Shown piece after piece: positions 975-48,103 of a stretch of DNA of 64,000 nucleotides. A program made the translations under genes and the position numbers. Within the stretch, counting starts at the first letter, position 1. The number at the start of each line of letters is the position of its first letter. The stretch lies in the IMG/VR virus record IMGVR_UViG_3300003654_000069, positions 1 to 64,000 of that record; one strand, 5' to 3'. The notes under the pieces were generated by a model. The model searched no databases. It was given only the letters and a program-made list of their open reading frames with translations, and was not told where the DNA came from. Source of the stretch: a virus.

Positions 975-1018
975 GAAGGGCTATCTTGCAATCTGCAGGG
1001 TAGCCCTTCTTTTTTTTT
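975..1018 (+). terminator. rho-independent terminator at the convergence point of the plus- and minus-strand modules
   Basis: A perfect 9-bp stem, GAAGGGCTA (975-983) paired with TAGCCCTTC (1001-1009), is followed by a T9 run (1010-1018). It sits between the plus-strand stop (972) and the minus-strand stop (1017-1019). Confidence 0.8.
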
Positions 1019-4000: not shown

Positions 4001-7000
4001 TGAGATCTCCAAGGAATAGTTTTATATAAGGCTTTCTTTCATGATATCCACGACTGGCTTCTCGGAATTCTATAAGTCTCTTAGCAATAGATAAATCATA
4101 TATTCCATTAGCAGGATCATCAAACTTTGCCTTACCATCTCTATGTACTAAATAAAACAAACTATTATAATCTCTTTGGAGAGATCTGTTTATTGCATCA
4201 GATTCATCATCTCCGATTTGATCATTTGGTTTACGCTGGAATATCTGTATATTCTCAAGTGCTTTCTTTCTGGCATCAAAAGCAAGTCTTCCTATATGGT
4301 CATCAAAAAGAGTAAATTTTTCATAGAACTCAGGCACAAAATCTTGGTTCCAATAAAGACGTTCATGATCACGTATCTCTTGCTCCTTTAATCTAATCTT
4401 TTCATTGTTTGCATCGGTAAGTGGATTCCTATTCAACTCTGCAAGTTCATGAACTAGTTTAGGAAGTACTAATCTACGGTTTTTGGTTGGGTTTAAATAG
4501 GATTGAACATCTCTTTCTACCCATTCACCTTTATCATCAGTATATCCTATTTTGTCAGCAAATAATAACTGATTAGCTAAACCTTGTGTATTCATAGGAT
4601 TATATCCTAATTCTTTTAGAACATCCTGTATTTCATTTTTAAAATCTCCGAGAAGATCAAGAGCTTCGGTCTGAGCATCAGTCATGGCATCACTAAGAAA
4701 CTTGGCAAAGCCACCAATAACAAGATCACTATTCTGAAGAGGACCAAGAAGCCATTGTGCAGGAAGACTTGCATCTCCCAACTTGCCCTCTAGTATATCT
4801 TTTAGCTTTTTATCAGTAATTTGTGTCCTCTCATACTTCTTGGTTATCTCTGCAAGTGCTTCTTTGGATGCACCTTGTGTCGTAGCTTTTTTCATCGTAT
4901 CCTCATATACAATTTTCATACTAAGCTGGGTTACCTTAAGCTGCTTAAGGATAATTACATGCATTCCCGCCTTATATACTATACCAAGATTACTTTCAGC
5001 CTGTTTGAAAGTGCTAGCTATTCCACTAATAAGTTCATGTATTGGATTGGTAGTAGGAACATTATTATCATTAAGAATATTAATACTTCCCTCTATAAAT
5101 TGCTTCCAGTGTTGCACAACAGTATTATAATTAAATACTCTATAAAGATTATCAACAGCATTAAGATTATCCGTATTATCAGTAATTTGTTTAAGATGTT
5201 CATTCATTTTCTGGGCTACCAGATCAAGCCGGAGAAGACTATTAGTAAGAGCTCGGGTATGCCTCTTTGCATACTCAAGATCTACTTTAAGAGCATCTAG
5301 TTTTTTCTCCACATTTCCTTCAAAGAAACCAAGCTCCCTTTTCATTTGTGTAAGGTGACTTGGTGAATCTTGACTTATAAGAAGATCAATAACTTCTTTA
5401 TACTTTCCTCTATTTTCCTTTTGCTTCAATAAACCAACCATTGATAAAGCAGATGTATGGAAATCATTAGTAATTTGGACAATAACATTATTCTCAAGCT
5501 TTCTCAGGGCTTCTGTAAACTCCTCTTCTTTCCTTTGAAATTGTTCAACATCCGAATTTTTTATTCTGACTGTTGTCAGATTAAACTTTCCACCTGCCAT
5601 AAGCATCTCAGCCAGATCCTCAAGGGAACTGTTTACATCTAATTTCTCTACAGTAATCCTATTACCGAATATCTTTCTCAACTTCTGCTTGATGGCATAC
5701 ATAAGATTCTTAATGAACTTCATAAATGGTCCAGAATTATTGATATTATTCATTTTATTCTCAGCTGCAAGCTGAATGGACCATACAAGAGCTTCTTTCT
5801 TATATGCTGAAGTGCCTTCTTTCAGATTAGGGTACCGAGTCTCTAGAATCGTCTTGATCCGATTACTCTCATTAGATAGAAGAAACTGCGTATAGAGACT
5901 ATCAAACAGAGCTGGATCCCCCACTTCAATCGCATCAATAATAGGATGAGAGAATTCATGAAAGAGTGTTGCTGGTGATAAGAGGTCCCGTATGAAATAA
6001 GCAGTACCTCCCACATAGAATGCAGGTTCTCCTTTCCATGTTTTAGCATATGTGATAGCTTCATTTTTATCAATTATTTTATAAGGTTTACCTGTTTGGA
6101 ATGATAAGGCATCTGCCATTTTGATTAAAAATTCAAGTGCCATAGCCTGATCAGTAGATTTAAGATCCAGATTAGGTACACTTTCACCTCTATAGAATTT
6201 TGGAAAATTAGTGAAATATGGACTATAACTTTGGCTGAGTACATTAGCAACCGGTCCACCAGGAATCTTCCGGGATACATACCAGTTTCCCTTCTGTGAT
6301 TGTGTAAGAGTCCATGATTCAGGTACAACCATCTCTTTTATCTTGGCTGCAATTAGTTCCAGATCAATAGCATCAAGCTTATCGAAGATTACCCCATGCT
6401 CACTTACCTCATACATCTGATCCAGCCATTGTAGAAGCTGTCTCTGGTGAGAGGAAATGTCCATTGAATAAGATACAGCAGGATCTGAAGATGTTTTATC
6501 TCTACCCTTAATAATATCCGTTATTTTAGCTATTGTTTCTGGAGAGTTTAACAAAATAATTTGAGAAGGTTCAAATACTACTATTATATTACCCCATTCA
6601 TCTATTGGGGATTCTGAAAACTTTTTCAATTCTTCTGCAATAGTATCCTGTTTACTTAATCCTATATGAGAACCAAATATCGCATCCGAAATTTTATTTT
6701 CTCTTTTACCAATTTTAGTATTATAATAGGTTCCAAGTTCAGGATTACTAATATTCAAAATAGCAGGTGTATGAATACTTCCATATTCATCAGCACTAAA
6801 AGCTTCTCCTTCTTTTTTACGACTAAAAAATATACCATTTTCAATTTGAAATCCTCTATATAACCTTCTTTCAGATTCTTTTAATTTTCTAACAGAAGTA
6901 ATAAACTGTTCACTTCCATGCCATACTATATTCTTAACCTCACTGCCAGGTATTAACTGTTCAATAGCATATTGTATATCTTCATTACTAAATTTAGCAT

Positions 7001-7253
7001 AAGCTGGTTCTATTGATTTTAGATCATCTATATTTTTAGATTGTTCTGGAGTTATAGTAGTTTTGGTAATATCTGTTTCTGTGAGTTTTTTAGATAGGGA
7101 TTGCTGAAATACAGTAGCAACATCACTAGTACGAGTAGGTGTAGATACAATCTGTTCACCATTCTCATAGTAATTTTTATAGGCTTGGAATTCTCCTACT
7201 TCTGCTACCATGGTTTTCCAGGCAGGATCGGTTGTATTGGGGCATATACTCAT
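1017..7253 (-). CDS. giant (2078 aa) multidomain virion/ejection-type protein with an ART-like N-terminal region, an HExxH zincin motif and a C-terminal hydrophobic helix
   Basis: Uninterrupted 6.2-kb ORF. Its start overlaps the stop of the 4038-aa gene as ATGA (7250-7253). Domain motifs are listed as separate features. Confidence 0.9.
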   Translation of the reverse strand: MSICPNTTDPAWKTMVAEVGEFQAYKNYYENGEQIVSTPTRTSDVATVFQQSLSKKLTETDITKTTITPEQSKNIDDLKSIEPAYAKFSNEDIQYAIEQLIPGSEVKNIVWHGSEQFITSVRKLKESERRLYRGFQIENGIFFSRKKEGEAFSADEYGSIHTPAILNISNPELGTYYNTKIGKRENKISDAIFGSHIGLSKQDTIAEELKKFSESPIDEWGNIIVVFEPSQIILLNSPETIAKITDIIKGRDKTSSDPAVSYSMDISSHQRQLLQWLDQMYEVSEHGVIFDKLDAIDLELIAAKIKEMVVPESWTLTQSQKGNWYVSRKIPGGPVANVLSQSYSPYFTNFPKFYRGESVPNLDLKSTDQAMALEFLIKMADALSFQTGKPYKIIDKNEAITYAKTWKGEPAFYVGGTAYFIRDLLSPATLFHEFSHPIIDAIEVGDPALFDSLYTQFLLSNESNRIKTILETRYPNLKEGTSAYKKEALVWSIQLAAENKMNNINNSGPFMKFIKNLMYAIKQKLRKIFGNRITVEKLDVNSSLEDLAEMLMAGGKFNLTTVRIKNSDVEQFQRKEEEFTEALRKLENNVIVQITNDFHTSALSMVGLLKQKENRGKYKEVIDLLISQDSPSHLTQMKRELGFFEGNVEKKLDALKVDLEYAKRHTRALTNSLLRLDLVAQKMNEHLKQITDNTDNLNAVDNLYRVFNYNTVVQHWKQFIEGSINILNDNNVPTTNPIHELISGIASTFKQAESNLGIVYKAGMHVIILKQLKVTQLSMKIVYEDTMKKATTQGASKEALAEITKKYERTQITDKKLKDILEGKLGDASLPAQWLLGPLQNSDLVIGGFAKFLSDAMTDAQTEALDLLGDFKNEIQDVLKELGYNPMNTQGLANQLLFADKIGYTDDKGEWVERDVQSYLNPTKNRRLVLPKLVHELAELNRNPLTDANNEKIRLKEQEIRDHERLYWNQDFVPEFYEKFTLFDDHIGRLAFDARKKALENIQIFQRKPNDQIGDDESDAINRSLQRDYNSLFYLVHRDGKAKFDDPANGIYDLSIAKRLIEFREASRGYHERKPYIKLFLGDLKKVEQAIIDKGVGYERDSEKFNLLRRGWIDRNTIIKVKDTYAAEVKRNLDVIKLVLRNKPQAKEATEAWEKLLHIGNMHRDGNGHIVGAEILPADIQRARALEELADSLKPEGKLTAGLSPTEKTDLNNAFRELRNLRGTYATNSYINTFNGLLTKTESQVLINKYGPGATEMTDEYAEDILSDGDLRRALLANNAPLREWFRANHIQIDTTEYSDNEYKRLYVWNVKKPNSTIYLDKTDILDENGDIIEVIDRVPNSRYSVSNVKKEFRNGYDPKTGEVNLIVGKHIDNKGRMLPLSLEQGAPSNSPYINEKYYALKNSTSEMDKARFKALGIFTKYLLKTQEGIGVRGKVYLDQPRYSMVFAEVVQTKGFGDAARSPIDTFYGWVGNFIQTAKDDYDRDYNFDDAVQLVTAESFSDGNSKIPITGAGELEFNQVSVDLTMSLAKYMYSATKQKKLIEINPIAQALRTVLKDPANAIKLINSIDKNNLNNRGQVTFVDDPKSKNIRAKTIESLYEKHFLGQNLAGWGKDSKILNATVNALFGRASFAMFALDIISALKNAFTQVFQNIIEAIGGRYLGMTNYGAGTVWATQAMTELSLSIQERGGPQSIRVQLIHRFDMLRGRTERVFGEEMSRTWLKKLLDFGWFFSFRKWTESHSTVSLSAGMLDRQLVPQKVGNEIRNIPYLQAWELDSKGKLKLLDGIDPSWDKGEDFKNMRELMHSVARSTAGAYDNFSLPEAERHLLGRLTFFLNKYFIPMFMNRWAFSGPIWAPRDRIDVGRGEANKGMYIVTIEQLMKAVKTAGKSLAMMTPNEKAGVIKTVAEIAMLIVLTQLYMFLFDWDAGDDDKWEKIKARSGDMPGLFVVEDPDAPFKLDGWLANSALNLMMQIRAESDQWIPIPGLGLDNYNNMLNWKSYAFGPTLDLYVQMANDVYLMGTGDDRAYYQKDVGPYEWQQEESWKLINHAAKTVGIKGTFWSPYLATKNLVNFQAIGSKK
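1488..1553 (-). other. predicted transmembrane or membrane-inserting helix (residues 1901-1922 of the 2078-aa protein)
   Basis: A 22-residue hydrophobic run, VIKTVAEIAMLIVLTQLYMFLF, is followed by the acidic stretch DWDAGDDD. Confidence 0.45.
5946..5960 (-). other. HExxH zinc-metallopeptidase motif (HEFSH, residues 432-436 of the 2078-aa protein)
   Basis: The reverse complement of 5946-5960 is CAT GAA TTC TCT CAT. The context GGTAYFIRDLLSPATLFHEFSHPIIDAI parallels the HESWH module of the 4038-aa protein. Confidence 0.5.
6564..6932 (-). other. possible PARP/ART-like (H-[Y/F]-E type) ADP-ribosyltransferase module, residues ~108-230 of the 2078-aa protein
   Basis: The order IVWHGS ... NGIFFSRK ... 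IIVVFEPS matches the H-G-S, aromatic-F/Y-S/T and catalytic-E order of H-Y-E clade ARTs. Judged by eye only. Confidence 0.3.
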
Positions 7254-10200
7254 ATTGCGCAGGCTGCTCTTTTGATGTCTCTTACCATTTGATTGGTGAG
7301 AGGCATACTGGTTTGTAATATTCTTTCACCTTCAGTAGTACTAGTAAAGTTTTTATTTAAGTAGTTGAAATCTTTAAGTAATCTTGCCGACAAATGTGCA
7401 AAAATTCCTGGTGCAACAGCTCGTTTATCACTTAAATTATCACCAGTAATATCATCAGCACCAATAAGAGCTTGTCCCATTCCTCCTTCAGGGAATACAA
7501 TCCGCTTGGGATTAACAGGATCATTCTTCATTGCAAGAGCAGCATCCAGAACTGCATCTATTCTTTTGGCATGTGCTTCAAACTCCTTCTCAGTACCATC
7601 AGTAATCTGGGCAGTATTCTGATTTGTATAATAAGATACCCTTAATGGAATACCTATAGCATTAGTTTCACCACCTGGTCCTTTTGCTGTTTGCCATACA
7701 TGACCCGGAACACCGAAGAACTTAGTATTTACAGGTTTACCGGGAACAAGACCATCATACATAAAAATTGCATTAGGGTTCTCTATCATTATCTTCTCGG
7801 CCATCTTAACACTTTCAGATAACTTATCTGTAAATGAACTGGTATAAGTGAATACACCCGGAAAACTTTCTTTTATAAATCTTCCTTGTAAAGGTATAAG
7901 TTGAGAAGATTGTTGTGTAAAAGCTTTGATTATTACATTTTTAGTAAATTCAGCAATTCCTGGGTGACTAACTTCTCTATGTCCCGCTACATTAAGTGTT
8001 TTAATATTATTTTTTATAACAAATTCTAAAAGTTGTTCAGCAGCTTCATTAACATCTTTAGTAGTAATAACTAATACAGGACGATGTCCTTTATCACTAG
8101 ATTTCCCTGTACCATGTTGCCATTTACCTGTTTGAGCATATCCTATAGTTTTGCTTGTACCAACACTTGTTCCCCATAGAGTAGCTAATGTACCGTCTGA
8201 ATCATCTACATTTTTCATTGTTCTTTTTGGGTATGTTTTAGGATCTGATACTCCTTCAACAAGACCAAAAGACTCAAGCAAAGCTTTTTCATTCTTATCT
8301 CCACTAAGCCAATTAGGAGGGGCTGTACCACCTGTTTCAATACCTACAGCTTTAGCTCCTTCTAATCCACCTATATCTCCACCAGTTTGACCACCAGATA
8401 TAATTTTAGTGACAGCAAGTATAGTAGGTTCTACGGATGTTTGCCCCAAAGTAGCTCTATTGCTAGAGTTAATAGTATACTGTTTATACCTATCTCTATA
8501 TTGATAATTACTGGAACGGTTATTCCATGCAAACATTTCTGCAAAATTGTCTATGAAAGCAGTACCTCGTTTTCCAGAACTGATTTCATCAAGCATAGTA
8601 ATATATTTTGGCATTTCTGACTCCATAAACAAAACAGTAGTCTTCTCTGTAGGCATTATACGACCCATAGCAAACATGTTATCGGTAGCCATACCGGACT
8701 GAAGCATATTGAAGAATGGCATCTTCCGGAAGAATTCTGATATTCTCATGTTCTCCTTATCATCAGCTACTTTCATTACTCTAGGATCCATTAGATTAAG
8801 GAGACTTTCATGAAACATATTTCTCATATCAACTGTCATCCTTGGGTCATGTAAGCGAAGATTATCCATTCTTTCCAGTTGAGTTTCTCCTGGTTTAACT
8901 CCTATCTGATTGAATACAATCTGATCCAGAACAGGAAATCTGTCTGCCATATCTGTATCTCTATACTTATTCTTAAATTCTTGATACTGTTTAGCATAAC
9001 TACTGTCATTCTTAAAGACCTTCCATGTATTCCATATATTATCCAGAGCTTTATCTCGTAGAATTTCTTCATAGGAAAGTATACTTATTCTCTCATCAAA
9101 AGCAGCATGTGTTTCTCCCTCCTCTCTCTTTTGTATCTTTTCATTTCTCTCTAAATTACGTTTGAACTCATCAGTATCTTTTACATCTTTTATAGAAGTA
9201 AAGCTTCTCAGATGTTCTCTTTCTATTACGAAATGAGCATACTCATCCATTGACTCAAATACATTCTTATGAAGTGGTGCAAGACCAAGTTCTCTATATT
9301 CTGGCATAAGACCAAGACCTGGTTTTGTAATAAGATTATAGTCAGATTTGATTTTTTCTTTATCAATATACATGGTATCATTATGAACAAAGGCACCTAT
9401 CTTAAGATATCTGATTTGTGTAATAGAAGTTGTTGTATTGGTATTATACCCCTTGTACTCCTTAATATTATCTAAAGAAAATCCTCGAAGCATATCCTGA
9501 TAGATATATGATATGAAATCACTCTTCATAGTATCTATTGTCTCTTCCATATCACGATATGTTTTCTCAACAACTTCCTCAAATTTTTTATCTTCTATTT
9601 GTTTAAGTATATGGTTATTAAGTGCAGGATGATTTGAGAGTTCAAATAAAGGAGCAAGATGATGAGCGAGGAACTCAGAAATATCATAGCTACCCATTAC
9701 TGAGTCTTCCATGATATTAGTAACCATTTCTGGCCGCCATCTGCCATTCTGTTCTAGTTGTTTTGCTTTTATATGTCTGAACATAGCCATGAACATAGTA
9801 CCAGATTTTTTAGCATCAAATCTAGTAGCTAGTTTTATTTTAGTAAGACTACTACTTTGATCTTCTAGCTCAAAATAATGTAATAAGACATCAATATCAG
9901 TCTGTGATGGTTGTACAAGCTCTTCTCCTTCAACTCTTTGTCCAAATTTTTTACCCTTTTCCTTAAACACTTTAAGAGTATCGAGAAGTTCTCCTTCAGT
10001 AAATGGATTATCAGCTCTTCTGGTACGGAGATACATATATATCTCCTTCTTCATAAAGTGAATCTCTTTAGTATTTCTTATAATTTTCTGTCCGATAAGT
10101 TGTGTCTGAGCACCTTTACCTAATGCATCAAGTAAAGGTTGTGTATATCTAAGAGTCATTCCATATTTTGCATCAGATAACATAACATCCCTAGCATGGT

Positions 10201-13200
10201 TTCTAGCGTACTGTGGTTTTTCTGCAGCTTTGTTAAGGGGACCGCCAAACTGACTTTGGGCAAGTTGTTGTTCTCTTACATATGCTCTTACTAAAGGATT
10301 ATTAACAAGATAAACTGCCATCTCTTTTGTTACACCAGCTCTTCCTACCAAATAAGCAAATGTAGGAAGGACATCTAAAGAAATACCTAATCTAAATATC
10401 CACGGATCTTTTGCCACATCCACATAACCGGAAATAAGCTGGGCTTGGTATTCAGGCATTTTATATCCTTTTACATTTCTTAGTCCTGAGACAGATATTA
10501 CCTCATTACCATCATCATCTGTAACGGTATTACTATCCATATATATGGCCTGAATTCTTGCAAATTCTCTATTACCAGCCTTATCCATGAATGTATAACT
10601 CATAGGCTCACCATTATCCATAAACATTGGAGAGGTTGATGCATCTACTGCAGCAATCCCTAAACCTGCCATACCAGAACCAAATGCCTGATGCATATCT
10701 AGATTGAAGAGTTGTTCCATAACACGGGTATGACTGATTTTATCAGTCTTCTCACCATGTACATTCTCTCTAGCATCATATTCCTGAGTAAATTTCTCCA
10801 TTTCTTCTGTAAGCTTGTCATAATGGAATGTACCATTGGCACGAATAAGATCAGCAAAACCTGCAGGATCAAGAAGAATATTCTCCATAGCTAATAGTAA
10901 TTGATTCTCAGCAAATTTTGCCTCATACTCAAGAGCAAAATCTTCATAACTCTTCACTCCCTGTTCTTTTAATATATCTATTATCTCTTCTTCTGTATAA
11001 TTTCCATCATAAGCATCTGGAATTGTTGTTTCTATTAACTCATCCATTTCAGTATCTACTATCCTAATTATCTTACCATCTTCATCCTTAAGGAAATTTA
11101 CTTCAAGTGCTTTATCCCGGAGTCTTTCCCATATTTTTTTCACAGCAATAGGATCATATCCAGCTAGTCTGGGAACCCCATTAATTATGGTTATACTAGG
11201 CATAAGAGTTAATTCCTTATCACCATCAAAGTCAATACCTTTTTTAGCAAGCCATTCGGGAGGACCTATAATTATTGCTCCAGCAAGTTTTGGTAAAAAT
11301 TCATGAACTTGAACTATATCAAATGATGCTTTAGACTGACCTGGAATCCTGGGTGATATGAAACTAATCATTCTACGATTTTCATCATTAGCATACCAAC
11401 CTGGAGCTTGGATAATCTCATTGAGTCTTAATAAGGTTCTGGCAGGTTGACCATCTGGATGCACTAATTTAAGCAGCTTCTGGAAGTCTCCTTGAAGTGC
11501 AATCTTGACTCTCACAGACTGAATCTTTGAGGTATCTGGTTTCTTTACCCAGAAACCTACATTCTTATGTTCTTTTCTCTCAAAACCCTGTTCTTCCAGA
11601 AATTCAGCTATTATACCTTCTCCTGAGACATTATGTGGACTAATAGCATTAGTCTTATTGTCAGCAATGAAAGTCCGTACACCCTGGTATATGGCCTTCT
11701 TAATATGCTTTTTAATAAGTTCTACATCTTTTTCCTGATTTTTTCTTCCTCTTCCTGGAACAGAAATCATTACCTTATCAAACATGTCGTATTTATCTGC
11801 ATTAACAGCATTATCCCCACGAGCCTTTCTAAACTCATCTGCATACTTGATAGTAGAGCTTGAAGGATCATGAGAAACTGCTATAATCTTATCAGCAAAA
11901 TCAGCTTTTACCTGGTCTTTAGGAAACTTGGCACCAATAATTACAGGAGTAACCTGTCTTTCTATTGTTTTAGGATCAATTTCTCGTTCTATATGATAGC
12001 TTGCTAAACCATTACTACCATACCTCATAAGATCTGTAAAGCTTGGCTTCTTAAGTTTGATCTCTCTAACAGCATCTGAACTTTCCATACCAGCCCCAGA
12101 TACAATATTTAAAGGTTCTCCCTTTACTTTCTGTTTAATAAGTCTTCTCTCAACCATTCCTACAATCAGTCTTTCAATATCTGCGGCTGCAGGTGAAAGG
12201 GAAAGATCATGTTGAAGCTTATTCAAAATACCATTAAATTCTACAAAATCTACTTCATGTTCACCAAACTCTCCTCTTTCCAGTTCAGATTTAGCTAATG
12301 CTATAAGCTTCTCTAGATTAACCTTAGCTCCATCGCTGGTACCACTTAAATCTATATTGAGTTGCTTCTTACGAATCTCAGTCAGGTACTTTGCTGCCTT
12401 ACCAAAATCACTATGCTTTATATAGGCAGCGGAAAGCTTTCTTCTAGCTTTATCTGTAGCTTCTTTATCAATTTTACCATCTTTACCTATTACTTCAGTC
12501 TTCTTCCAGGCCTTCCTTTTTTCATCTGTGGTAACATTAGGCTTAAAATCTACAGGAACTCCATCGGACATAAGACCGGTAGTGATAAGTCTTCTCAACT
12601 GGGTAGAAAAACTAACCTTTCGCTTATACTTATCAGGAATAGATACCTGATCCTTGAGATATTCTATATAAACAGGATTCGGAGTAAATTGATAATCATC
12701 GGATGCAAAAGCAGCTATTCTATCTTCTTGATTACTATAGAACAAATCTAGTTCACCATTTTTTCCAATAGATGTAAGCTTCGACCCAGATTGAAATAAT
12801 GCATAATCGATACCTTGGGAAACCATCTTATTATGAAATATTTCCAAATTACCTGTTACAACTCCAGGAATAAGAGGTAAAAGCATCATTTTATGGAATG
12901 ACTGAAGGGGGATTCCTAGTGCTGTTGCAAGAGGACCGAACTCCTGAAGTTTCATTGTAGGAAAGAAATGTTCAGCAGCTTCAGCACTGATTTTCTCACC
13001 TTTGATAACTTTCCAATACATAGTTTCCATTTCATCAGTCCATTCATCAGAACCCATAAGCTTCTTAAGAATTCGATATGTATCAAAAGTTATCCATCCC
13101 TGTCCATCTCCTTCTTTAATACCCAGATAGTTCTTCATCTCAGCTGCAAGTATCTCATCAATTGCTTTCTTGGATAATTTTGCATCTTCCATAGTTTTTA

Positions 13201-16200
13201 CAGAATCTGCATACATTACTCTGGTATATTCTGCAAAATAAATACTATTTAATACAGAATCTTGTAGAACGGCTGACTGTACTATACCAGTCCATCTGAT
13301 ATGTATTGGCTTAAACATTCCTTCAGGGAACCACTTACTATCCATGTAAGGTCTTAATCTATTTTCCTCACCATCCATGCTGTTAATAAATGCTCGGGAA
13401 GCAGCATCATTAAGGAAACCTTTTCCTGTTGCAGGTCCTCCTGTAATACGTTTAATTGCACTTTCAGCTGATTTATACTGGGCAAGATCTCCATAAAAGA
13501 TAGTAAATGTCTCATAATTATGGATCCACATATTAGTAAGATATGCCTCAAATAAAGCTTTCTTATACTGAGGATTTGTGAAATCACCGGATATATGATG
13601 ACCCTGTCTGGCACCTGCACCAACTGATCTTAGAAGCTCTTGCATATTCTCAAGATGGGCACTATTATCAAACCCAAGTTCATTGAATGTTTCAGTAAAT
13701 TGTTTAACTCGATTATCAAAATACTTATCTAGATCTTTTATTATCTTATCCAGAAGATCCTGATTTTCTTTCTGGAGTTGTCCAAAAAGAGGATTATCAT
13801 GGTCATAGTCAGTCATTTTCATAAGCTCATCTTTCGTACTTGGAGAAAGAACATCATGAAAAAACGTGAACTTTTGTCCAGCTATGTAATAAGGAATAAG
13901 TTTACCATTTTTATCTGTAGCTTCTGTTAATGCATCACGTTCCTCTGATCCTACAGGAAGAGCTTTCAAATAATTAATCCTGGCTAGCTCATTGCTTATT
14001 TTGGAAAGAAAGATAATATTTCTTTCTTCTCTACCAGTATCAATAAGGAATTTAACAGGATCTATATAATATTTTCCAGTATGTTTTGTATTAGGTGATA
14101 TACCATTGGCCTTTGTGATCTTAGATACTCCAGACATATATGAAGTAGTTCTGTCAGAAGTTCGGGGTCCTTCAGCCCAACCTCGCTGAAAAAATGTAAT
14201 AAGATCTCCCAAAAACTTAGTAGCCTTATCAGTATCTGCTAAAGCAGATCCAGAAAGATGTATTATATCATTAAAAGTAGTAGCTACACCTGATAGATTT
14301 CCCCATATAAGTTCAACAACTGCAGTACTCTTATCTTTTTCATTAACTTTTCTCCTTTTTTCTGTTATAGGATCAAAAAGCGAGGCCATAATTATACTAT
14401 CTCTGATTAAAGGATTTCTATCTTTTTTGAGATATGACATGAAAGGAAATCTGAAAAAGAGATCATCCTCTGACTCTGAATTATTAATAGCATTGACTTG
14501 TCGTGTATTAGTAGAATGAAGAGCAAACTCATATTGAGTCTTGTTTTCTGCGGTACTGACCATAAAACCAGCAGCAGTATTATGTTGAGCTTCAAGTTCA
14601 GCTAATTTTGTAAAACGACCCTCCCATCCTGTTTTATCTCTAAGTATCTTTTCTCCTGGTATTATTTTTCCTTCAGGTGATATTTTAGGTAGATCTGTGA
14701 TATTATCTCTTTCTTGATACAATTGATTCAAAAAATCTGCTCTTAGGATAGGTTCCTTTTGGTGTATTAATATATTTAACCATCTATAAATGTGAAATAT
14801 CTGATATTTGTTATCACTATCTTTCATTATTTCAGTTTCCACTTCCAACTGTTCAGATAAGTCAATCCCAATAACTCTTAAAAATTCAGGAGATCTTAAT
14901 CTATCCAGTGTATCAACAGTACTATCTTTATCTTTAGGAGCTGCAAATTCCTTTACAACTTCTGCAATATCAAGATATACTATTCCATTAATATCTTTCT
15001 TCATGAACTTATTTCTTCCTAGTACAGGAAAGTCAGTTTGCCATTGACTCTTCATTCTTCTATGACCACCTGAAGTTTTTCCAAATGCAAAATCAAATAT
15101 ATCTACTCCTTTTGTATTTATCTCCTTATTTATAGTAAGTTGATGAAGATAGGTTCTGATCTTATCGAGGGATGCCTGAAAATCCATCCATATAACATTA
15201 ACTATTTTTTTATCACTCTTTCGATCACCAAGTCTTTCTAAGAGTTGTTTATATATATGAGCATCTGGATAATTTGGGTTGTCTCTTCTAACTACCATTC
15301 TATTATATAAAAGCTCTCTATCATTCCCACCAACCAAGTACTTAACAACTCTATTCCATACAAGCATTGGCTCCTCATAATTGAGAAAACCAAATCTGTC
15401 ATAAGCATCAGCCTGATTCTTAGACTTAAAAATGGTTTTCATGAGTACAGCTATCTCAGGAGTAGCAAAGAAGTCCAATGGAATAGTATTACCCTTTCTG
15501 TTAGGATCACTTCTTTCTTTTGCGACAGATGCACTAGTATCAAAATCATCATCTATACCTTCTAATTTCGCTTTATCCTTGGCAGTAAGAAACCGAGTAT
15601 GGTCTCTATGATAAGCAACAATCCCTTTCTTTTTATCTTTCTTAGTAGGATAAAAATTATTTTCAATATAACCCAGAAGATACATATTACGACTTTCACC
15701 AACATTAACTAGTTCTTTAGAAGGAGCTTGTTTGGCAGCTTCCTGCTGTGACATTATAAGCCGGGCAGTATCAATAGTTCTTTCAAGAGGTGAAGCAATA
15801 ATCTCAGGAATTTCTATATCCTTGAATAACTGTCCAATTTCTACAGCTTGCTTAGTACCCTTATCTGTAAGTTGTCCACCAGGAGTACCAAAAGTTTTAG
15901 TTACATTATCTATGGTTTCTCCATGTCTTACAATATGAATAGGACCATTCTTACCCTGAATAATAAAATGTGCTCCTGGTTTGAATGTACCAGCCTGTTT
16001 TACATATGCATTTCTCTGAAGTTGTGTGAATTCAGAAGGGTTCCCCTCTTTATTCCATAGACTAATTAATCCAAATGTTGAACCATGAGTAACAACTACA
16101 GTATGAGCCTTACCATTAGCTACTATATCAGATATAGCAGGAACAATTCTATTGAATGCATGATTGAAAGATTCACCATCAGAGATAATAGGCTTATCAG

Positions 16201-19200
16201 GCTTATTCATTATATTGTCAGCAATAGTCATATTTTTAGCTCTATCTTCTGGTCTTCCTACTTCAGACCCATAATCAAAACCTCTAAAACTATTAACAAG
16301 TTTAAGCTTAGACTTAACACCAGTTCTCATTGTTCTAATTTCATCAAGTACAAGGGTATATATAATTTTTTGGGAAGAAGGTTCTTTCATTAAATGATGC
16401 TCACTTATAAAATGACCTTGTCTTTTTTCCAATACTATGGCTATTTTGGTAATAATTTTATCAAGAAGACCACTTATAGCCTTAGATTCAGTATAATCAA
16501 GATTAACTGCTTCCATCGGATTGCCAGCAGCATCAGTATCAAGACCTTGAATACCTTTACGGAGAATATTGAAGTTCCGGTTACTTATATCAAAGGTAAA
16601 GTCTGAAAGATCACCTATTCTCATCTTTTCGAAAAGCTGATGGATATGTACATTATCAAGAGGACTTGCTATAACATCTTTCATACTAGTACCACCAAAA
16701 AGAGACTTGAGTATATCCCATAACCTTTTAAATATTGATTTTCTGGCTGGTCCTGAAGGGATTTTTTTACCACCAGATAACATATACTTACGGAAATCCT
16801 CTGCAAGCCACTCTTCTAATTGTTCTTCACTGGCTTTATTAAAGGCTACTGTTACACCCTTATAATCAGTAAAACTACCCTGTAATGAACCAGCCTCTTT
16901 ATAAAGTCTTTTCTTTTGTTCTTTAGTCAGGAAAAGCTGAGTGAATCCGTGCCATGACTCATGGTAAAGATCTGAGAAATCTGATCCTTTGAAAAGAACA
17001 ATACCATCAGCAGTCCATTGAGCAACTCCTGAACTGTTAACAATAGTAAACATAACTTCAAAAGGAATAAACTTTGACATAGGATGGTTTGAATACCATT
17101 TCTTGGCATCTTCTATCTGAGCTTTAGTAGCAACTAAGTTAAATGTCTTCTGAAACTTATTCTTATTCCACTTAACTTTGAATATCTCTTCAAGCTTTCT
17201 AAGTGCTGGATCTGTTAAAGGAGCTAGACTGACTGTCTTCTCTTGGGTAGGTACGGTTATATCTATATTAGGAATAGTACCCTTAGCTGCACCTAATGAT
17301 GGGGCACCAAGCATAAAATCGAGAGAGGGGTTTATAGGAGCAATCCCTCTCACACCACCATCGTCATAAGACACAGCATTAGAAAGTGTTTTTGTTGCAA
17401 TCCAATTGACATATGGTATTGCAGGTACTTTTTTAATAGATATTTTGCCATTTTTATCAGTTTCCAGACTAAACTCCTCAATCATTTTTTGGTCACTAAT
17501 AACATTATAAGTCTGGAAATTAGCCCATTTAAGAACAAGTTTTCCATTTGGGTCTTTTACCTCTACAAGCATAAAATCCTTCCCCTGATTTCTTGTTTTA
17601 GCTGCTAGTCTAGGATCACTAATTTTATCAAATAGTCTATTACCAGTTTTTAGATAAATTGCATAGGGAGTATCCTTTCCATCTTTAGTCGTCATTTCTC
17701 TACTAATAGGAACAGCATCTTTACTTATAAATGGATGACTTAGATATTTTATAATTAATTTTTTTGCTTCTTCTTTCTTAACAGCAAGCTCTTCTGGAGC
17801 AATACCGGCAGACTTATAGATATCATGACCCATGTATCTGACAGTAATATTCTTAGTATCATCTGCAAATAATTGCAATCTATCACTACTAAGTAAAAGC
17901 ATTGGTCGAAGAAGTGCTAATTTGGCATGAACAGACATGGGCTCCTTTCCTTTATCATAAATATCATCTACTATAAGACTTGCCCAACTCTCTATGTCTT
18001 CCTGAGTAATATACTTTCTAGTAAGAGGAATTTCTTCATGTACACCAGGAAGAGTTAAATTAATATTCTTTACTTCCTTTAGACCTGGAACAGGTTGAAT
18101 ATCAAAACCTTTAGATAAAGTAACTTTACTAAGATCTTCAAATTCATTTTTCGGAGTCTTGGTAATAATTCCTTGCGAACCTCCTGTTATATGGCCTATT
18201 ATCTTATTACCCTTAAGAGCACCATTATCAGTAGATAGTACATGTTTAGTAACCTGATCACGCTCCTCAGCTTGATCATTAGTAAACTTGGTTGCTTCTT
18301 CTAAGGTAATTTTTGTATATGGTTTTTTTAATGATTTTTTTACAGTTTCATTAGGATTTTCTATACCTGATTTTTCATAGTTAATACTTCCATTTTCATT
18401 TCTATGTACTCCTTTTACAGGAGAATAAAATATTCTACCATTATTTTCATCAGTAAGTTCACGTTTAACATTAAAGTATAATATTACACCATTTTCATCA
18501 GTAGCTACCATAACTACCTTTGTCTTCCAATTTGCCAAGGCAGCAGCATTATCTGTGGCATTACCATTCTCTAAAAATGCTTTATCTTGAGAACTATATT
18601 GCCCTGGAGGAATATTAGTAGCAGCCATTGCTGTATAATACAATCCTGTAGTTCCACCACCAGGTCTGATAAATTTTATATTACGACTATCATTATTATA
18701 TCTTGGATTATCTCTCAGATCATCCAAGATACTTCTCATAAATTTCATGTAGAATCCCATTTCCAGATCAGGAATATTTCTCATTATCTCAGCCCGCTGA
18801 ATACCTCTTGCTTGTTCTAAACTTTTATTATCTTCATCCCTGATTTTAGGAAGAGTTCTATGCTTAGCTTCCTGACCAGTAGTGTGGTTAAGACTTTTAA
18901 GAAGAACAGTACTTTTAATAGGCTTCTTAAATTTTCCTTTCTCTTCAGCCATTCTCTTCTGCTGTCTATCCTGTGCCTGATAAGAAAGTTCTTTACTTAT
19001 CTGCTCGGTTGTTTGAGTAGGTGTACCTTTTTCTAGATAAGTAAGAACATTAGCAATTCCTTTCTCAAGCTCTTTCCCAAACTCTCTTATATGCTTTCCG
19101 AGGGCATTCAGATCAAGACCATTATTTGCTAGATATTCTGCAAGGACTTCATTTGCTTCAGTAGACACAACAAGATTAATTGCCTTAGGAACAACTTGTA

Positions 19201-19366
19201 ATACGGATGCCGCATAGGCATGTTCATCACCTCCAATAACAAGACCCTTATCATACATATCACTAAAGAATTTATCCATAGAAAATTTAGTACCATTTTT
19301 TCTTATAGTATCTAAATTAAGACGAACAAGTTCGTATACATCACTTGGATCAAGAGGACATGCCAT
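7250..19366 (-). CDS. giant (4038 aa) virion-type two-barrel RNA polymerase fusion protein carrying zincin, histidine phosphatase and cpYpsA/SLOG modules
   Basis: Uninterrupted 12.1-kb ORF. It contains a beta-prime-like R-x-P...DFDGD motif plus three accessory enzyme signatures, each listed as a separate feature. Both gene junctions overlap (TAATG at 19364-19368, ATGA at 7250-7253). Confidence 0.85.
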   Translation of the reverse strand: MACPLDPSDVYELVRLNLDTIRKNGTKFSMDKFFSDMYDKGLVIGGDEHAYAASVLQVVPKAINLVVSTEANEVLAEYLANNGLDLNALGKHIREFGKELEKGIANVLTYLEKGTPTQTTEQISKELSYQAQDRQQKRMAEEKGKFKKPIKSTVLLKSLNHTTGQEAKHRTLPKIRDEDNKSLEQARGIQRAEIMRNIPDLEMGFYMKFMRSILDDLRDNPRYNNDSRNIKFIRPGGGTTGLYYTAMAATNIPPGQYSSQDKAFLENGNATDNAAALANWKTKVVMVATDENGVILYFNVKRELTDENNGRIFYSPVKGVHRNENGSINYEKSGIENPNETVKKSLKKPYTKITLEEATKFTNDQAEERDQVTKHVLSTDNGALKGNKIIGHITGGSQGIITKTPKNEFEDLSKVTLSKGFDIQPVPGLKEVKNINLTLPGVHEEIPLTRKYITQEDIESWASLIVDDIYDKGKEPMSVHAKLALLRPMLLLSSDRLQLFADDTKNITVRYMGHDIYKSAGIAPEELAVKKEEAKKLIIKYLSHPFISKDAVPISREMTTKDGKDTPYAIYLKTGNRLFDKISDPRLAAKTRNQGKDFMLVEVKDPNGKLVLKWANFQTYNVISDQKMIEEFSLETDKNGKISIKKVPAIPYVNWIATKTLSNAVSYDDGGVRGIAPINPSLDFMLGAPSLGAAKGTIPNIDITVPTQEKTVSLAPLTDPALRKLEEIFKVKWNKNKFQKTFNLVATKAQIEDAKKWYSNHPMSKFIPFEVMFTIVNSSGVAQWTADGIVLFKGSDFSDLYHESWHGFTQLFLTKEQKKRLYKEAGSLQGSFTDYKGVTVAFNKASEEQLEEWLAEDFRKYMLSGGKKIPSGPARKSIFKRLWDILKSLFGGTSMKDVIASPLDNVHIHQLFEKMRIGDLSDFTFDISNRNFNILRKGIQGLDTDAAGNPMEAVNLDYTESKAISGLLDKIITKIAIVLEKRQGHFISEHHLMKEPSSQKIIYTLVLDEIRTMRTGVKSKLKLVNSFRGFDYGSEVGRPEDRAKNMTIADNIMNKPDKPIISDGESFNHAFNRIVPAISDIVANGKAHTVVVTHGSTFGLISLWNKEGNPSEFTQLQRNAYVKQAGTFKPGAHFIIQGKNGPIHIVRHGETIDNVTKTFGTPGGQLTDKGTKQAVEIGQLFKDIEIPEIIASPLERTIDTARLIMSQQEAAKQAPSKELVNVGESRNMYLLGYIENNFYPTKKDKKKGIVAYHRDHTRFLTAKDKAKLEGIDDDFDTSASVAKERSDPNRKGNTIPLDFFATPEIAVLMKTIFKSKNQADAYDRFGFLNYEEPMLVWNRVVKYLVGGNDRELLYNRMVVRRDNPNYPDAHIYKQLLERLGDRKSDKKIVNVIWMDFQASLDKIRTYLHQLTINKEINTKGVDIFDFAFGKTSGGHRRMKSQWQTDFPVLGRNKFMKKDINGIVYLDIAEVVKEFAAPKDKDSTVDTLDRLRSPEFLRVIGIDLSEQLEVETEIMKDSDNKYQIFHIYRWLNILIHQKEPILRADFLNQLYQERDNITDLPKISPEGKIIPGEKILRDKTGWEGRFTKLAELEAQHNTAAGFMVSTAENKTQYEFALHSTNTRQVNAINNSESEDDLFFRFPFMSYLKKDRNPLIRDSIIMASLFDPITEKRRKVNEKDKSTAVVELIWGNLSGVATTFNDIIHLSGSALADTDKATKFLGDLITFFQRGWAEGPRTSDRTTSYMSGVSKITKANGISPNTKHTGKYYIDPVKFLIDTGREERNIIFLSKISNELARINYLKALPVGSEERDALTEATDKNGKLIPYYIAGQKFTFFHDVLSPSTKDELMKMTDYDHDNPLFGQLQKENQDLLDKIIKDLDKYFDNRVKQFTETFNELGFDNSAHLENMQELLRSVGAGARQGHHISGDFTNPQYKKALFEAYLTNMWIHNYETFTIFYGDLAQYKSAESAIKRITGGPATGKGFLNDAASRAFINSMDGEENRLRPYMDSKWFPEGMFKPIHIRWTGIVQSAVLQDSVLNSIYFAEYTRVMYADSVKTMEDAKLSKKAIDEILAAEMKNYLGIKEGDGQGWITFDTYRILKKLMGSDEWTDEMETMYWKVIKGEKISAEAAEHFFPTMKLQEFGPLATALGIPLQSFHKMMLLPLIPGVVTGNLEIFHNKMVSQGIDYALFQSGSKLTSIGKNGELDLFYSNQEDRIAAFASDDYQFTPNPVYIEYLKDQVSIPDKYKRKVSFSTQLRRLITTGLMSDGVPVDFKPNVTTDEKRKAWKKTEVIGKDGKIDKEATDKARRKLSAAYIKHSDFGKAAKYLTEIRKKQLNIDLSGTSDGAKVNLEKLIALAKSELERGEFGEHEVDFVEFNGILNKLQHDLSLSPAAADIERLIVGMVERRLIKQKVKGEPLNIVSGAGMESSDAVREIKLKKPSFTDLMRYGSNGLASYHIEREIDPKTIERQVTPVIIGAKFPKDQVKADFADKIIAVSHDPSSSTIKYADEFRKARGDNAVNADKYDMFDKVMISVPGRGRKNQEKDVELIKKHIKKAIYQGVRTFIADNKTNAISPHNVSGEGIIAEFLEEQGFERKEHKNVGFWVKKPDTSKIQSVRVKIALQGDFQKLLKLVHPDGQPARTLLRLNEIIQAPGWYANDENRRMISFISPRIPGQSKASFDIVQVHEFLPKLAGAIIIGPPEWLAKKGIDFDGDKELTLMPSITIINGVPRLAGYDPIAVKKIWERLRDKALEVNFLKDEDGKIIRIVDTEMDELIETTIPDAYDGNYTEEEIIDILKEQGVKSYEDFALEYEAKFAENQLLLAMENILLDPAGFADLIRANGTFHYDKLTEEMEKFTQEYDARENVHGEKTDKISHTRVMEQLFNLDMHQAFGSGMAGLGIAAVDASTSPMFMDNGEPMSYTFMDKAGNREFARIQAIYMDSNTVTDDDGNEVISVSGLRNVKGYKMPEYQAQLISGYVDVAKDPWIFRLGISLDVLPTFAYLVGRAGVTKEMAVYLVNNPLVRAYVREQQLAQSQFGGPLNKAAEKPQYARNHARDVMLSDAKYGMTLRYTQPLLDALGKGAQTQLIGQKIIRNTKEIHFMKKEIYMYLRTRRADNPFTEGELLDTLKVFKEKGKKFGQRVEGEELVQPSQTDIDVLLHYFELEDQSSSLTKIKLATRFDAKKSGTMFMAMFRHIKAKQLEQNGRWRPEMVTNIMEDSVMGSYDISEFLAHHLAPLFELSNHPALNNHILKQIEDKKFEEVVEKTYRDMEETIDTMKSDFISYIYQDMLRGFSLDNIKEYKGYNTNTTTSITQIRYLKIGAFVHNDTMYIDKEKIKSDYNLITKPGLGLMPEYRELGLAPLHKNVFESMDEYAHFVIEREHLRSFTSIKDVKDTDEFKRNLERNEKIQKREEGETHAAFDERISILSYEEILRDKALDNIWNTWKVFKNDSSYAKQYQEFKNKYRDTDMADRFPVLDQIVFNQIGVKPGETQLERMDNLRLHDPRMTVDMRNMFHESLLNLMDPRVMKVADDKENMRISEFFRKMPFFNMLQSGMATDNMFAMGRIMPTEKTTVLFMESEMPKYITMLDEISSGKRGTAFIDNFAEMFAWNNRSSNYQYRDRYKQYTINSSNRATLGQTSVEPTILAVTKIISGGQTGGDIGGLEGAKAVGIETGGTAPPNWLSGDKNEKALLESFGLVEGVSDPKTYPKRTMKNVDDSDGTLATLWGTSVGTSKTIGYAQTGKWQHGTGKSSDKGHRPVLVITTKDVNEAAEQLLEFVIKNNIKTLNVAGHREVSHPGIAEFTKNVIIKAFTQQSSQLIPLQGRFIKESFPGVFTYTSSFTDKLSESVKMAEKIMIENPNAIFMYDGLVPGKPVNTKFFGVPGHVWQTAKGPGGETNAIGIPLRVSYYTNQNTAQITDGTEKEFEAHAKRIDAVLDAALAMKNDPVNPKRIVFPEGGMGQALIGADDITGDNLSDKRAVAPGIFAHLSARLLKDFNYLNKNFTSTTEGERILQTSMPLTNQMVRDIKRAACAI
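7922..8419 (-). other. cpYpsA-type SLOG domain (former 'putative molybdenum carrier' family), residues ~3650-3815
   Basis: IISGGQTGGDIGG (SGGQTGGD at nt 8375-8398) ... ETGGTAPPNW ... YPKRTMKNVDDSDGTLATLWG ... LNVAGHREVSHPGI. These match the GGQTG-x-D, RT-x-NV-x-DSDGTL and NVAG-x-RE signature blocks of that family as I remember them. Confidence 0.65.
11219..11362 (-). other. catalytic double-psi beta-barrel of a multisubunit-type RNA polymerase (DFDGD = residues 2712-2716, nt 11219-11233)
   Basis: FISPRIPGQSKASFDIVQVHEFLP...AKKGIDFDGDKELTLMP parallels bacterial beta-prime NRAPTLHRLGIQAFEP...AYNADFDGDQMAVH. R2673 lies 39 residues before the Asp triad. Confidence 0.75.
15752..16300 (-). other. 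histidine phosphatase (PGAM/SixA superfamily) domain, apparently circularly permuted (residues ~1023-1205)
   Basis: C-terminal-half motifs (FDYGSEVG, DGESFNHAFNRI, VVVTHGSTFGLI with H1094 at 16085-16087) come before the N-terminal-half motifs (IVRHGET with R1147-E1150 at 15917-15928, then LTDKGTKQA and SPLERTIDTA). Confidence 0.6.
16877..17149 (-). other. HExxH zincin-like metallopeptidase module (HESWH = residues 802-806, nt 16949-16963)
   Basis: The reverse complement of 16949-16963 is CAT GAG TCA TGG CAC. The context is GVAQWTADGIVLFKGSDFSDLYHESWHGFTQLF. Confidence 0.5.
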
Positions 19367-47161: not shown

Positions 47162-48103
47162 TTATACTGCATTGTTAACATTACCCTGAAGCTGACCATC
47201 ATATGATTTGAACATATCATAGTACTTACTATACATGGCCTTTCTATTTGCTACCCATAGTTTCTGCATTTCACTGAAGTTAGGGGTATTAACAATATTT
47301 AGAGCATAGTTTCTGGCAACTCTAAGTCTCTGATCAATAATTTGCATCTGAGCTATAAGGTTCTCTCCACCAAGGATAAGATTCTCAATTATTCTTTGCT
47401 TTACTGCATATTCATAATATTCATTAATCTCAGGATGATCAACAACAAGTAAATTTCCATCAGGATCAACAAGTTGTCCCTGGTAATTGATATACATCTT
47501 ACCATGTGTGAAATTAGTGAAGACAAATCCATCTCTGATATAGGCTTCATTCGTATGTCCGTGATGTTTTCCCCAGTTTAATCCCAAGTTTGGACACTCA
47601 CAATTAATAAATTTTGAATTCTTGAATACTACCTGATGAGAAAAATCATAATGTCGAGTATAGGTATTTACCTTCTGAATAATCTTATATTCTGCTCCAC
47701 ACTCGGTAAGACAGACTGAAGGAACACACTGAAAAGCAGGAGCACATGGATCTGTGGAATTCGGAAATGTCTTATATGTTGGAAATAAAGGAGTATTTAC
47801 AGATACCTCTTCAATATGGGTACCCTGAGGTGGTATGATAATCTCTGTAAAGCTCCCACACATAAGAGCAAAGTTCATTACAAAGAAGTCATCTGGAAGC
47901 TTTGCTTTATTATGCTCAATTTCAATAATTGTTTCTTTAGTCATCTGAACCCTAAGACCCAAATCATAATTGACACGAAGTGCAACCTTTGCAAGCTCTG
48001 CAGGTGTAATCTTTCCAGAAACATCAAGTGTTTTAAGATCCATACTTGCATCAGCAAGCAGCTGTTCCAATGTTCTGTATTTAAGAGTATAATTATAATT
48101 CAT
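47162..48103 (-). CDS. 313-aa hypothetical structural protein
   Basis: ORF in the operon. Its start overlaps the upstream stop as TAATG. Confidence 0.75.
   Translation of the reverse strand: MNYNYTLKYRTLEQLLADASMDLKTLDVSGKITPAELAKVALRVNYDLGLRVQMTKETIIEIEHNKAKLPDDFFVMNFALMCGSFTEIIIPPQGTHIEEVSVNTPLFPTYKTFPNSTDPCAPAFQCVPSVCLTECGAEYKIIQKVNTYTRHYDFSHQVVFKNSKFINCECPNLGLNWGKHHGHTNEAYIRDGFVFTNFTHGKMYINYQGQLVDPDGNLLVVDHPEINEYYEYAVKQRIIENLILGGENLIAQMQIIDQRLRVARNYALNIVNTPNFSEMQKLWVANRKAMYSKYYDMFKSYDGQLQGNVNNAV

Follow-up and report, generated by a model that had tools for sequence, protein, structure and literature searches.

The window analyzed here is the whole 64,000-nucleotide stretch taken from the virus record IMGVR_UViG_3300003654_000069 (positions 1 to 64,000), and the gene under study is a minus-strand open reading frame (ORF) encoding a giant protein of 4038 amino acids (aa), to which one database protein (P0004) is 100% identical (Table 1). 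This protein contains a domain of the histidine phosphatase type in which the canonical C-terminal part precedes the canonical N-terminal part. We use cpHP as shorthand for this circularly permuted histidine-phosphatase domain, number residues according to the 4038-aa ORF, and take the Pfam profile His_Phos_1 (PF00300) as the canonical reference. An earlier note on this DNA had described such a domain at 15752-16300, which corresponds to residues 1023-1205; the domain as defined by profile hidden Markov models (HMMs) is slightly larger (1018-1211).

Table 1. Positions of the cpHP domain, its host gene, and neighboring features in the window
Feature	Positions	Strand	Description
4038-aa ORF (host gene)	7250-19366	-	Giant multidomain protein of putative virion-cargo/RNA-polymerase type; uninterrupted
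Complete cpHP domain	15734-16315	-	Residues 1018-1211; two complementary His_Phos_1 stretches and AlphaFold2 model
First half in gene (canonical C-terminal part)	16016-16315	-	β3, helices, GES motif (E1065, R1073), β4, T1093-H1094; includes Gly1029 (site of the canonical proton-donor Glu) and Asp1031
Closure segment	15941-16015	-	Residues 1118-1142; helix/loop, strand β5 (AHFIIQ), G-K-N-G turn straight into β1; stands in for the canonical β5-β6 C terminus
Second half in gene (canonical N-terminal part)	15734-15940	-	β1 R1147-H1148-G-E-T-x-D-N1154, LTDKG helix, β2 IIASPLER (R1196), closing helix
HESWH (HExxH) motif	16949-16963	-	Residues 802-806
DFDGD motif	11219-11233	-	Residues 2712-2716; no other DFDxD occurs in the window's eight giant ORFs
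cpYpsA SLOG domain	7928-8404	-	Residues 3655-3813; Pfam PF12694, E = 1.4e-21, 77.2 bits (cutoff 26.2); second permuted domain in the same polypeptide
Eight consecutive giant ORFs	1017-47158	-	2078, 4038, 2534, 957, 1356, 1108, 1578, and 1704 aa
2078-aa ORF	1017-7253	-	Directly downstream of the host gene
Weak ART-PolyVal match in the 2078-aa ORF	6558-6929	-	Residues 109-232; E = 4e-4, 21.6 bits, below the cutoff of 31.2
Muzzle protein	42044-47158	-	crAss_MUZ, E = 1.5e-22
Ring protein 1	47162-48103	-	CrAss_Ring_1, E = 2.4e-9
Ring protein 2	48103-48765	-	CrAss_Ring_2, E = 4.8e-18

Canonical histidine phosphatases are built in the order β1 (RHG), β2 (SPLxR), β3, GES, β4 (HG), β5, β6, whereas the order found here is β3, GES, β4 (H), β5, β1 (RHG), β2 (SPLxR), without β6. 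Compared with the whole 4038-aa protein, His_Phos_1 matches in two stretches (75.1 bits, with a gathering cutoff of 21.7), and the excised region scores 84.2 bits. Searched alone, the first stretch (residues 1018-1116) scores 31.6 bits (E = 1.6e-7) and covers profile positions 68-169, and the second (residues 1143-1209) scores 56.8 bits (E = 3e-15) and covers positions 1-68. When the sequence was un-permuted in silico by placing residues 1135-1215 ahead of residues 1020-1134, the artificial sequence gave a single His_Phos_1 match spanning positions 1-169 (91.9 bits, E = 5.4e-26). The re-ordered sequence is also colinear with residues 4-154 of PhoE. The same division was obtained with an independent canonical HMM that we built from 92 ordinary phosphatases of approximately 200 aa: residues 1018-1117 correspond to HMM positions 71-173 and residues 1143-1211 to positions 4-73. 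Neither Pfam nor our own HMM detected a further His_Phos_1 stretch elsewhere in the 4038 residues. The earlier note had claimed a reversed motif order, and two complementary halves that re-ordering fuses into one full-length match bear out this claim far beyond chance. Its motif placements are likewise correct, with GESF at 1064, THGS at 1093 (H1094), RHGE at 1147 (R1147 and H1148), and SPLER at 1192 (R1196). These results confirm that the swapped order of the two halves is a real circular permutation.

As the earlier note had suggested, we predicted the structure of the region. For residues 1015-1215, AlphaFold2 with a 19-sequence alignment returned one compact domain, with a predicted local distance difference test (pLDDT) score of 94.7, a predicted TM-score (pTM) of 0.91, and all five models at pLDDT values of at least 93.8; the prediction from a single sequence (residues 990-1235) had a pLDDT of 31.9 and was not usable. 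Five strands are predicted in total. In domain numbering, β3 (7-9) is followed by helices, β4 (75-79, ending in T-H1094), further helices, β5 (119-124), a two-residue turn, β1 (127-133, ending in R-H-G), a helix, β2 (175-177, SPL), and a final helix. The hairpin formed by β5, the turn, and β1 is predicted with a pLDDT of approximately 97-98, and the family described below conserves three residues of this turn (G1138, N1140, and G1141). In the canonical histidine-phosphatase sheet, the strands are ordered 324156, strand 5 being antiparallel (PMC6957218). The predicted elements are compatible with a 3-2-4-1-5 sheet, as read from the order of elements. Because β5 is the antiparallel neighbor of β1 in the normal fold, closure by a hairpin between them is geometrically the simplest solution. 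The new chain ends fall within the loop that joins the SPLxR helix to β3. Since there is no counterpart of canonical β6, the event at the level of the predicted fold is a permutation plus the loss of the last, edge strand.

The permuted order is not peculiar to the window. With the window domain as query, phmmer was run exhaustively on the representatives of 1.84 billion clusters (50% identity) and gave 1266 matches at E ≤ 1e-3 and 127 clusters at E ≤ 1e-10, and among the matches listed, 107 proteins form one colinear alignment to the query across both halves. We scanned 175 proteins, comprising the window protein and retrieved database proteins, with our canonical HMM and found 137 in which the C-part precedes the N-part, 23 in canonical order, and 6 with tandem canonical domains. 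In the 137 permuted proteins, the HMM position of the break has a median of 71/72, and the two parts are separated by a median gap of 28 residues. Overall identity among the permuted clusters is approximately 30-45%. Most carriers are long proteins (1000-5600 aa) in which the domain may be N-terminal, central, or C-terminal, and there are also stand-alone members of 201-361 aa that start and finish at the domain edges. One of these (P0154, 201 aa) is the cpHP domain alone and stops just past the SPLxR helix, and three others (P0156, P0157, and P0014) start with a Met 8-10 residues ahead of the TFDFG element.

An alternative to a permuted domain is that two tandem canonical copies degraded in complementary ways, so that the C-half descends from copy 1 and the N-half from copy 2, with the remainder eroded into the flanks. 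Arrays from which this could start do exist among the retrieved proteins (the six tandem canonical proteins; P0048). However, the 4038 residues hold no other His_Phos_1 stretch, the 201-aa member consists simply of the C-part followed by the N-part, several members have their Met 8-10 residues before the C-half, AlphaFold2 folds the 201 residues alone with high confidence, and the halves abut at profile position 68 on both sides. The stand-alone members together with the family-wide order exclude both an assembly artifact and the model of two eroded copies, which we regard as effectively refuted and to which we assign a negligible probability. The earlier note's reading of a genuine permutation, as opposed to two degraded copies or misassigned motifs, is thus upheld by the HMM halves, the order across the family, and the prediction of a single domain.

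The common break point argues for a single origin, and the permutation probably arose once. A tandem duplication followed by truncation is the probable route, and tandem arrays are the classical precursor arrangement of a circular permutation. Arrays of two to four canonical histidine phosphatase domains were observed in P0048 (1161 aa, three and a half canonical copies), P0141 (771 aa), and P0125, P0126, P0134, P0136, and P0142. We considered these arrays as direct intermediates and rejected them, as they keep the catalytic Glu discussed below and lack the signatures of the permuted family.

The stand-alone proteins show some additional features. They bear one of two C-terminal extensions, either DUF5856 (PF19174, E = 1.5e-15) or a Cys-rich, zinc-ribbon-like module; proteins with such extensions are P0156, P0157, P0014, and P0161 (L002, 10001-11029) and P0158, P0160, P0162, and P0164 (L001 and L003, 10001-11071). 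By eye, the segment HKMHLR.TG.GSYA.HKALN.LY of the DUF5856 extension resembles Dps/ferritin-like helices. In P0090 (368 aa), the last 180 residues after cpHP contain motifs (GGAEGAD...GGTGWAV) resembling SLOG/YpsA, an identity that could not be confirmed: Pfam made no call for this segment, and its BLAST comparison with the cpYpsA domain of the window was insignificant (E = 0.03). The final approximately 20 residues of P0090 have the appearance of a probable assembly artifact.

We next consider where the permuted family occurs. An alignment-based scan found cpHP in 24 IMG/VR viral contigs, while a scan of IMG/VR with the single window sequence gave no match. In GenBank phages, megablast and tblastn with the window copy and a typical member (P0154) as queries returned no relative of the permuted domain. 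A word-indexed search for homologues, with only the window domain as query, retrieved just three canonical phosphatases, with a quarter of the query covered. When 185,579 species-representative prokaryotic genomes (GTDB) were scanned with a pattern as seed, all 63 confirmed matches had the canonical order and matched the N-half only; many of them were from Prevotella. Where a source is listed for a permuted member, it is a metagenome assembly of JGI, ENA, or Logan, and NCBI or UniRef entries are absent. An exact look-up of the window protein in the assembly index gave no entry. On this evidence, the cpHP family is restricted to phages and known from metagenomes alone. The GTDB genomes also encode small (approximately 168 aa) canonical histidine phosphatases (L029-L063), mostly in Prevotella/Bacteroidales, that have VRHGETEDN and SSDLxR in common with the permuted family and retain the Glu (LLRERDWG). 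Because Bacteroidales are typical hosts of crassviruses, these Prevotella proteins may be relatives of the cellular ancestor, bearing in mind that the search pattern was biased towards the common motif.

To place the domain among known phosphatases, the re-ordered family profile was compared with PDB sequences. PhoE ranked first (E = 2e-23), followed by CobC (E = 1e-18 to 5e-13), TIGAR-like proteins (E = 3e-15), and the phosphoserine phosphatase PspA (E = 3e-12), with weaker matches to cofactor-dependent phosphoglycerate mutase (dPGM), F26BPase, and Sts. After re-ordering, the best sequence relatives are therefore PhoE of Geobacillus stearothermophilus (1EBB/1H2E) and CobC (6NRU, 6E4B). CobC is an alpha-ribazole-5'-phosphate phosphatase, and PhoE is a phosphatase of broad specificity. 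The likeness consists of the RHGET..N, SxLxR, GES...R, and T-H motifs and a length of approximately 200 aa. In contrast to both, cpHP begins at β3, finishes after the SPLxR helix, and has no β6, and its region past the second His (W1104, G-R-P, Y1121) cannot be aligned with PhoE. None of the NCBIfam equivalog cutoffs was reached: CobC (TIGR03162) ranked first with 63.2 versus 162.9 bits, followed by PspA (NF045917; 41.1 versus 350), GpmB (NF002901; 39.2 versus 261), and SixA (TIGR00249; 21.4 versus 74.5), and the best-scoring stretch always lay in the N-half. As PhoE and CobC top the rankings while no equivalog cutoff is neared, cpHP may be expected to work as PhoE/CobC-type enzymes do but falls outside every defined equivalog.

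We then asked which catalytic residues are kept among the 107 family members aligned across both halves. The Arg of RHG (R1147) and the Arg of SPLxR (R1196) are invariant (107/107 each), the nucleophile His (H1148) is present in 106, and the second His (H1094) is present in 102. The Arg of GES...R (R1073) occurs in 105, the Asn of RHGETxxN (N1154) in about 104, and the Glu of GES (E1065) in 96. The window copy retains the complete R-H-R-H tetrad (R1147, H1148, R1196, and H1094). Conservation of this tetrad despite an overall identity of approximately 30-45% argues strongly that catalysis has been retained. With respect to branch 1 of the histidine phosphatases, the domain exceeds the His_Phos_1 threshold and has the RHG His, the second Arg, and the second His; it lacks the Glu proton donor and the linear order.

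The genetic setting of the domain points to a phage virion. The genes for ring protein 2, ring protein 1, and the muzzle protein lie upstream of the 4038-aa ORF in one gene block, and PHROGs models identify a portal and a major head protein in the window, which we assign on this gene content to a crassvirus. Its eight giant ORFs are consecutive, and the seven that follow the muzzle gene span 957-4038 aa. Overlapping stop and start codons (e.g., at 7250-7253, 19366, 26970, and 42044) suggest translational coupling of several of these ORFs. Apart from the muzzle N terminus, cpHP, and cpYpsA, the eight ORFs gave no Pfam or PHROGs match above threshold. Regions 705-950, 1820-2457, and 2609-3032 of the 4038-aa protein are homologous to other giants of approximately 4000 aa that carry cpHP near the C terminus; three such proteins have both the polymerase region and the HExxH region in common with the window protein, with cpHP at the C terminus. 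The DFDxD motif has been described as a signature of the virion RNA polymerase (RNAP) in all crAss-like phages (bioRxiv 10.1101/2020.03.07.982082). No PDB sequence, and thus not the phi14:2 gp66 RNAP, matched residues 1701-3200 in a phmmer search at E ≤ 0.01.

Mass spectrometry has verified virion cargo in the crassvirus PhiCrAss001; this cargo is encoded by the genes that follow the muzzle gene and includes RNAP-associated proteins, and ejection of this cargo ahead of the DNA has been proposed (PMC10172136). The window protein resembles such cargo and RNAP proteins (PhiCrAss001 gp45-gp50; phi14:2 gp66) in the position of its gene block, which lies past the ring and muzzle genes, its DFDxD motif, and its very large size. 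It differs in that no phosphatase domain has been reported for the PhiCrAss001 cargo; the word "phosphatase" occurs 0 times in that paper. By analogy, delivery of cpHP as virion cargo is a reasonable inference. The combination of cpHP, cpYpsA, and a polymerase motif in one ORF follows the polyvalent-protein pattern known from phages and conjugative elements, whose defining paper (Iyer et al. 2017, PMC5512222) nowhere mentions a phosphatase. The cpYpsA domain has a fold unrelated to that of cpHP, and it provides a precedent for a permuted enzyme-like domain in giant multi-effector proteins delivered by virions or by transfer. Nucleotides and ADP-ribose derivatives are the ligands or substrates of SLOG domains, and the presence of cpYpsA may hint at a nucleotide-centered role of the whole protein. 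Among the 22 other giant carriers of cpHP, the Pfam domains beyond the phosphatase are Kinase-PolyVal in three (best E = 3e-37), PD-(D/E)XK in two, and nothing else.

Several neighboring features deserve mention. The HESWH motif lies inside the conserved region 705-950, which is also found in P0009, P0035, P0052, P0053, and P0059; this segment has no Pfam match and could represent a zincin-like protease that processes the giant protein. The 2078-aa ORF contains an HEFSH motif at residue 432 in addition to its weak ART-PolyVal match. In three other crassvirus contigs, cpHP is encoded by a separate gene of 342-356 aa right after the genes for ring protein 2, ring protein 1, and a protein of 2136-2320 aa that we call muzzle by position, with no Pfam match on record. 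In one contig (L003), the gene after the stand-alone cpHP (11068-13350) encodes 760 aa with Peptidase_C10 (streptopain-like), Inhibitor_I69, and a Por secretion tail, which is an unusual neighbor for a cargo block.

The presence of a polymerase motif in the same polypeptide raises the possibility that cpHP is an RNAP accessory, which would process the phosphates at the 5' or 3' ends of early transcripts as these are synthesized, or would remove phosphate from the polymerase itself or from host RNAP. The three other proteins of approximately 4000 aa that combine a homologous polymerase region with cpHP are in line with this idea. In those homologues, however, cpHP is at the far C terminus and not at residue approximately 1000, many other carriers have no similarity to the polymerase region, and in three crassvirus contigs cpHP has a gene of its own beside the muzzle-position gene. 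Moreover, the closest characterized relatives, PhoE, CobC, and TIGAR, act on small molecules. Because the site of cpHP varies among giant proteins, the domain is not specifically a polymerase accessory, and we consider such a function quite unlikely. The earlier note had spoken of a phosphatase inside a polymerase fusion: the DFDGD motif does lie in the same ORF, but the domain is not unique to this protein and belongs to a large phage family in which its position in giant proteins varies.

We instead consider it likely that cpHP is an active, permuted PhoE/CobC-like phosphomonoesterase domain that is ejected into the host as crassvirus virion cargo. The chain would start at canonical β3 and run through the GES helix, β4 with H1094, and β5, from where a tight G-x-N-G turn would lead into canonical β1 with the RHG nucleophile, and it would end after β2 and the SPLxR helix with R1196. 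Such a domain would most likely be active as a metal-independent phosphomonoesterase that proceeds via a phospho-His1148 intermediate, with the usual Glu acid/base replaced and Asp1031 as the candidate substitute. Since the domain is part of a putative cargo protein with a virion RNAP motif, it would enter the host with the DNA and could act in the cytoplasm during the first minutes of infection. It would dephosphorylate either a small molecule (metabolite or nucleotide) or a protein.

A number of observations weigh against this reading. At the site of the proton-donor Glu (E83 in PhoE, E89 in dPGM), none of the 107 family members has Glu; Thr predominates (94), followed by Ala (9) and Ser (2), and the window has Gly1029, whereas 85 of the 92 canonical control sequences have Glu. 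The FDYGSEVG segment, which had been taken for the L-x-E-x-x-x-G-x-x-EG motif, thus lacks the Glu of that motif, and not every catalytic signature is kept, as the earlier note had supposed, although the R-H-R-H tetrad is. Family-wide absence of the Glu could entail slow or altered chemistry. In addition, the window copy has Gly at position 1160, which aligns with Gln22 of PhoE and is Arg in 104/107 members, as well as H1088 (mostly Asn in the family), G1095 (mostly Ser or Asn), and N1109 (mostly Arg or Lys); given these departures from the consensus, this particular copy could be weakened or re-specialized. On the structural side, Foldseek returned no significant global match in PDB or BFVD. 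Local matches were obtained to CobC (6e4b; 61 columns of the N-half, root mean square deviation [rmsd] of 1.1 Å, probability 0.95) and TIGAR (3dcy; 72 columns, rmsd of 4.2 Å, probability 0.97), and the best BFVD match was a canonical giant-virus phosphatase (TMq 0.40). Because Foldseek aligns sequentially, a missing global match is expected for a permuted fold; the identity of the fold is accordingly drawn from sequence profiles and the predicted order of secondary structure. Packaging of the 4038-aa protein in the virion is read from synteny, and the retrieved proteins include no direct duplication intermediate with the signatures of the permuted family.

Two residues were considered as replacements for the missing acid. 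Position 1031, two residues past the Glu site, is Asp in 79, Asn in 14, and Glu in 9 members and is Asp in the window, which makes Asp1031 a candidate for a relocated acid. Asp1153 (RHGETxDN) was also considered as a family-specific substitute and was dropped because canonical phosphatases from the GTDB scan have the same motif.

The loss of the proton donor across the family, together with the five family-conserved positions at which the window copy deviates (1029, 1088, 1095, 1109, and 1160), could also mean that the fold is genuinely permuted but that at least the window copy is a pseudo-enzyme or phosphate-binding module, serving as a ligand sensor or structural spacer. Yet a conservation of 95-100% for the four tetrad residues (two His and two Arg) at approximately 30-45% identity is hard to explain without catalysis, SixA-type members of the superfamily likewise function without this Glu, and we judge a noncatalytic role to be improbable. 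A phosphoprotein target has somewhat more to recommend it, though we still find it doubtful. On this account the domain would remove phospho-His as SixA does, or pSer, pThr, or pTyr as PGAM5 and Sts-1 do, and would thereby silence host signaling or defense kinases or balance a co-delivered kinase. SixA is a minimal branch-1 histidine phosphatase, and SixA-type members work without the canonical Glu proton donor, which the absence of the Glu in cpHP resembles; a Kinase-PolyVal domain is indeed present in some giant carriers. However, SixA is a cellular protein of canonical order whose match to cpHP is very weak and confined to the N-half, the CobC- and PhoE-type models score highest, and the kinase is limited to 3/22 carriers. 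Among the candidates we rank a phosphomonoester of a small molecule or nucleotide first, ahead of a phosphoprotein, with RNA ends or a polymerase accessory function next and a pseudo-enzyme last.

The histidine phosphatase (PGAM-like) fold is among the best-studied phosphatase folds, and for its permuted branch we found no curated model, structure, or paper. Pfam, NCBIfam, and PHROGs have no model of the permuted form, PHROGs recognizes the N-half alone through an unannotated family, and no structure was found in PDB or BFVD. Full-text literature searches returned nothing relevant on a circularly permuted histidine phosphatase or phosphoglycerate mutase, nor on crAss combined with histidine phosphatase. 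The permuted topology therefore apparently represents an undescribed domain family of well over a hundred phage protein groups. Annotation pipelines label cpHP proteins "PhoE" from the N-half alone, and because the permutation defeats sequential structure search, the family stays hidden from standard fold-based annotation.

For crassviruses, cpHP is a recognizable and probably catalytic module among huge cargo proteins that are almost wholly unannotated, and, in the form of its stand-alone members of 201 aa, it lends itself directly to in vitro assays. For the histidine phosphatases, the permuted family is a natural experiment on the loss or relocation of the catalytic acid/base in this fold. 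We also raise, with low confidence, a broader proposal in which cpHP is an unrecognized, conserved enzymatic weapon of crassviruses and related phages that enters with the virion cargo and erases a specific phosphate mark of the host within seconds of infection. If this were true, the erased mark might be a phosphorylated nucleotide-derived immune signal or a phospho-His or phospho-Ser switch, and both the missing Glu and the permuted topology would be adaptations to the substrate, or to unfolding, threading through the tail, and refolding.

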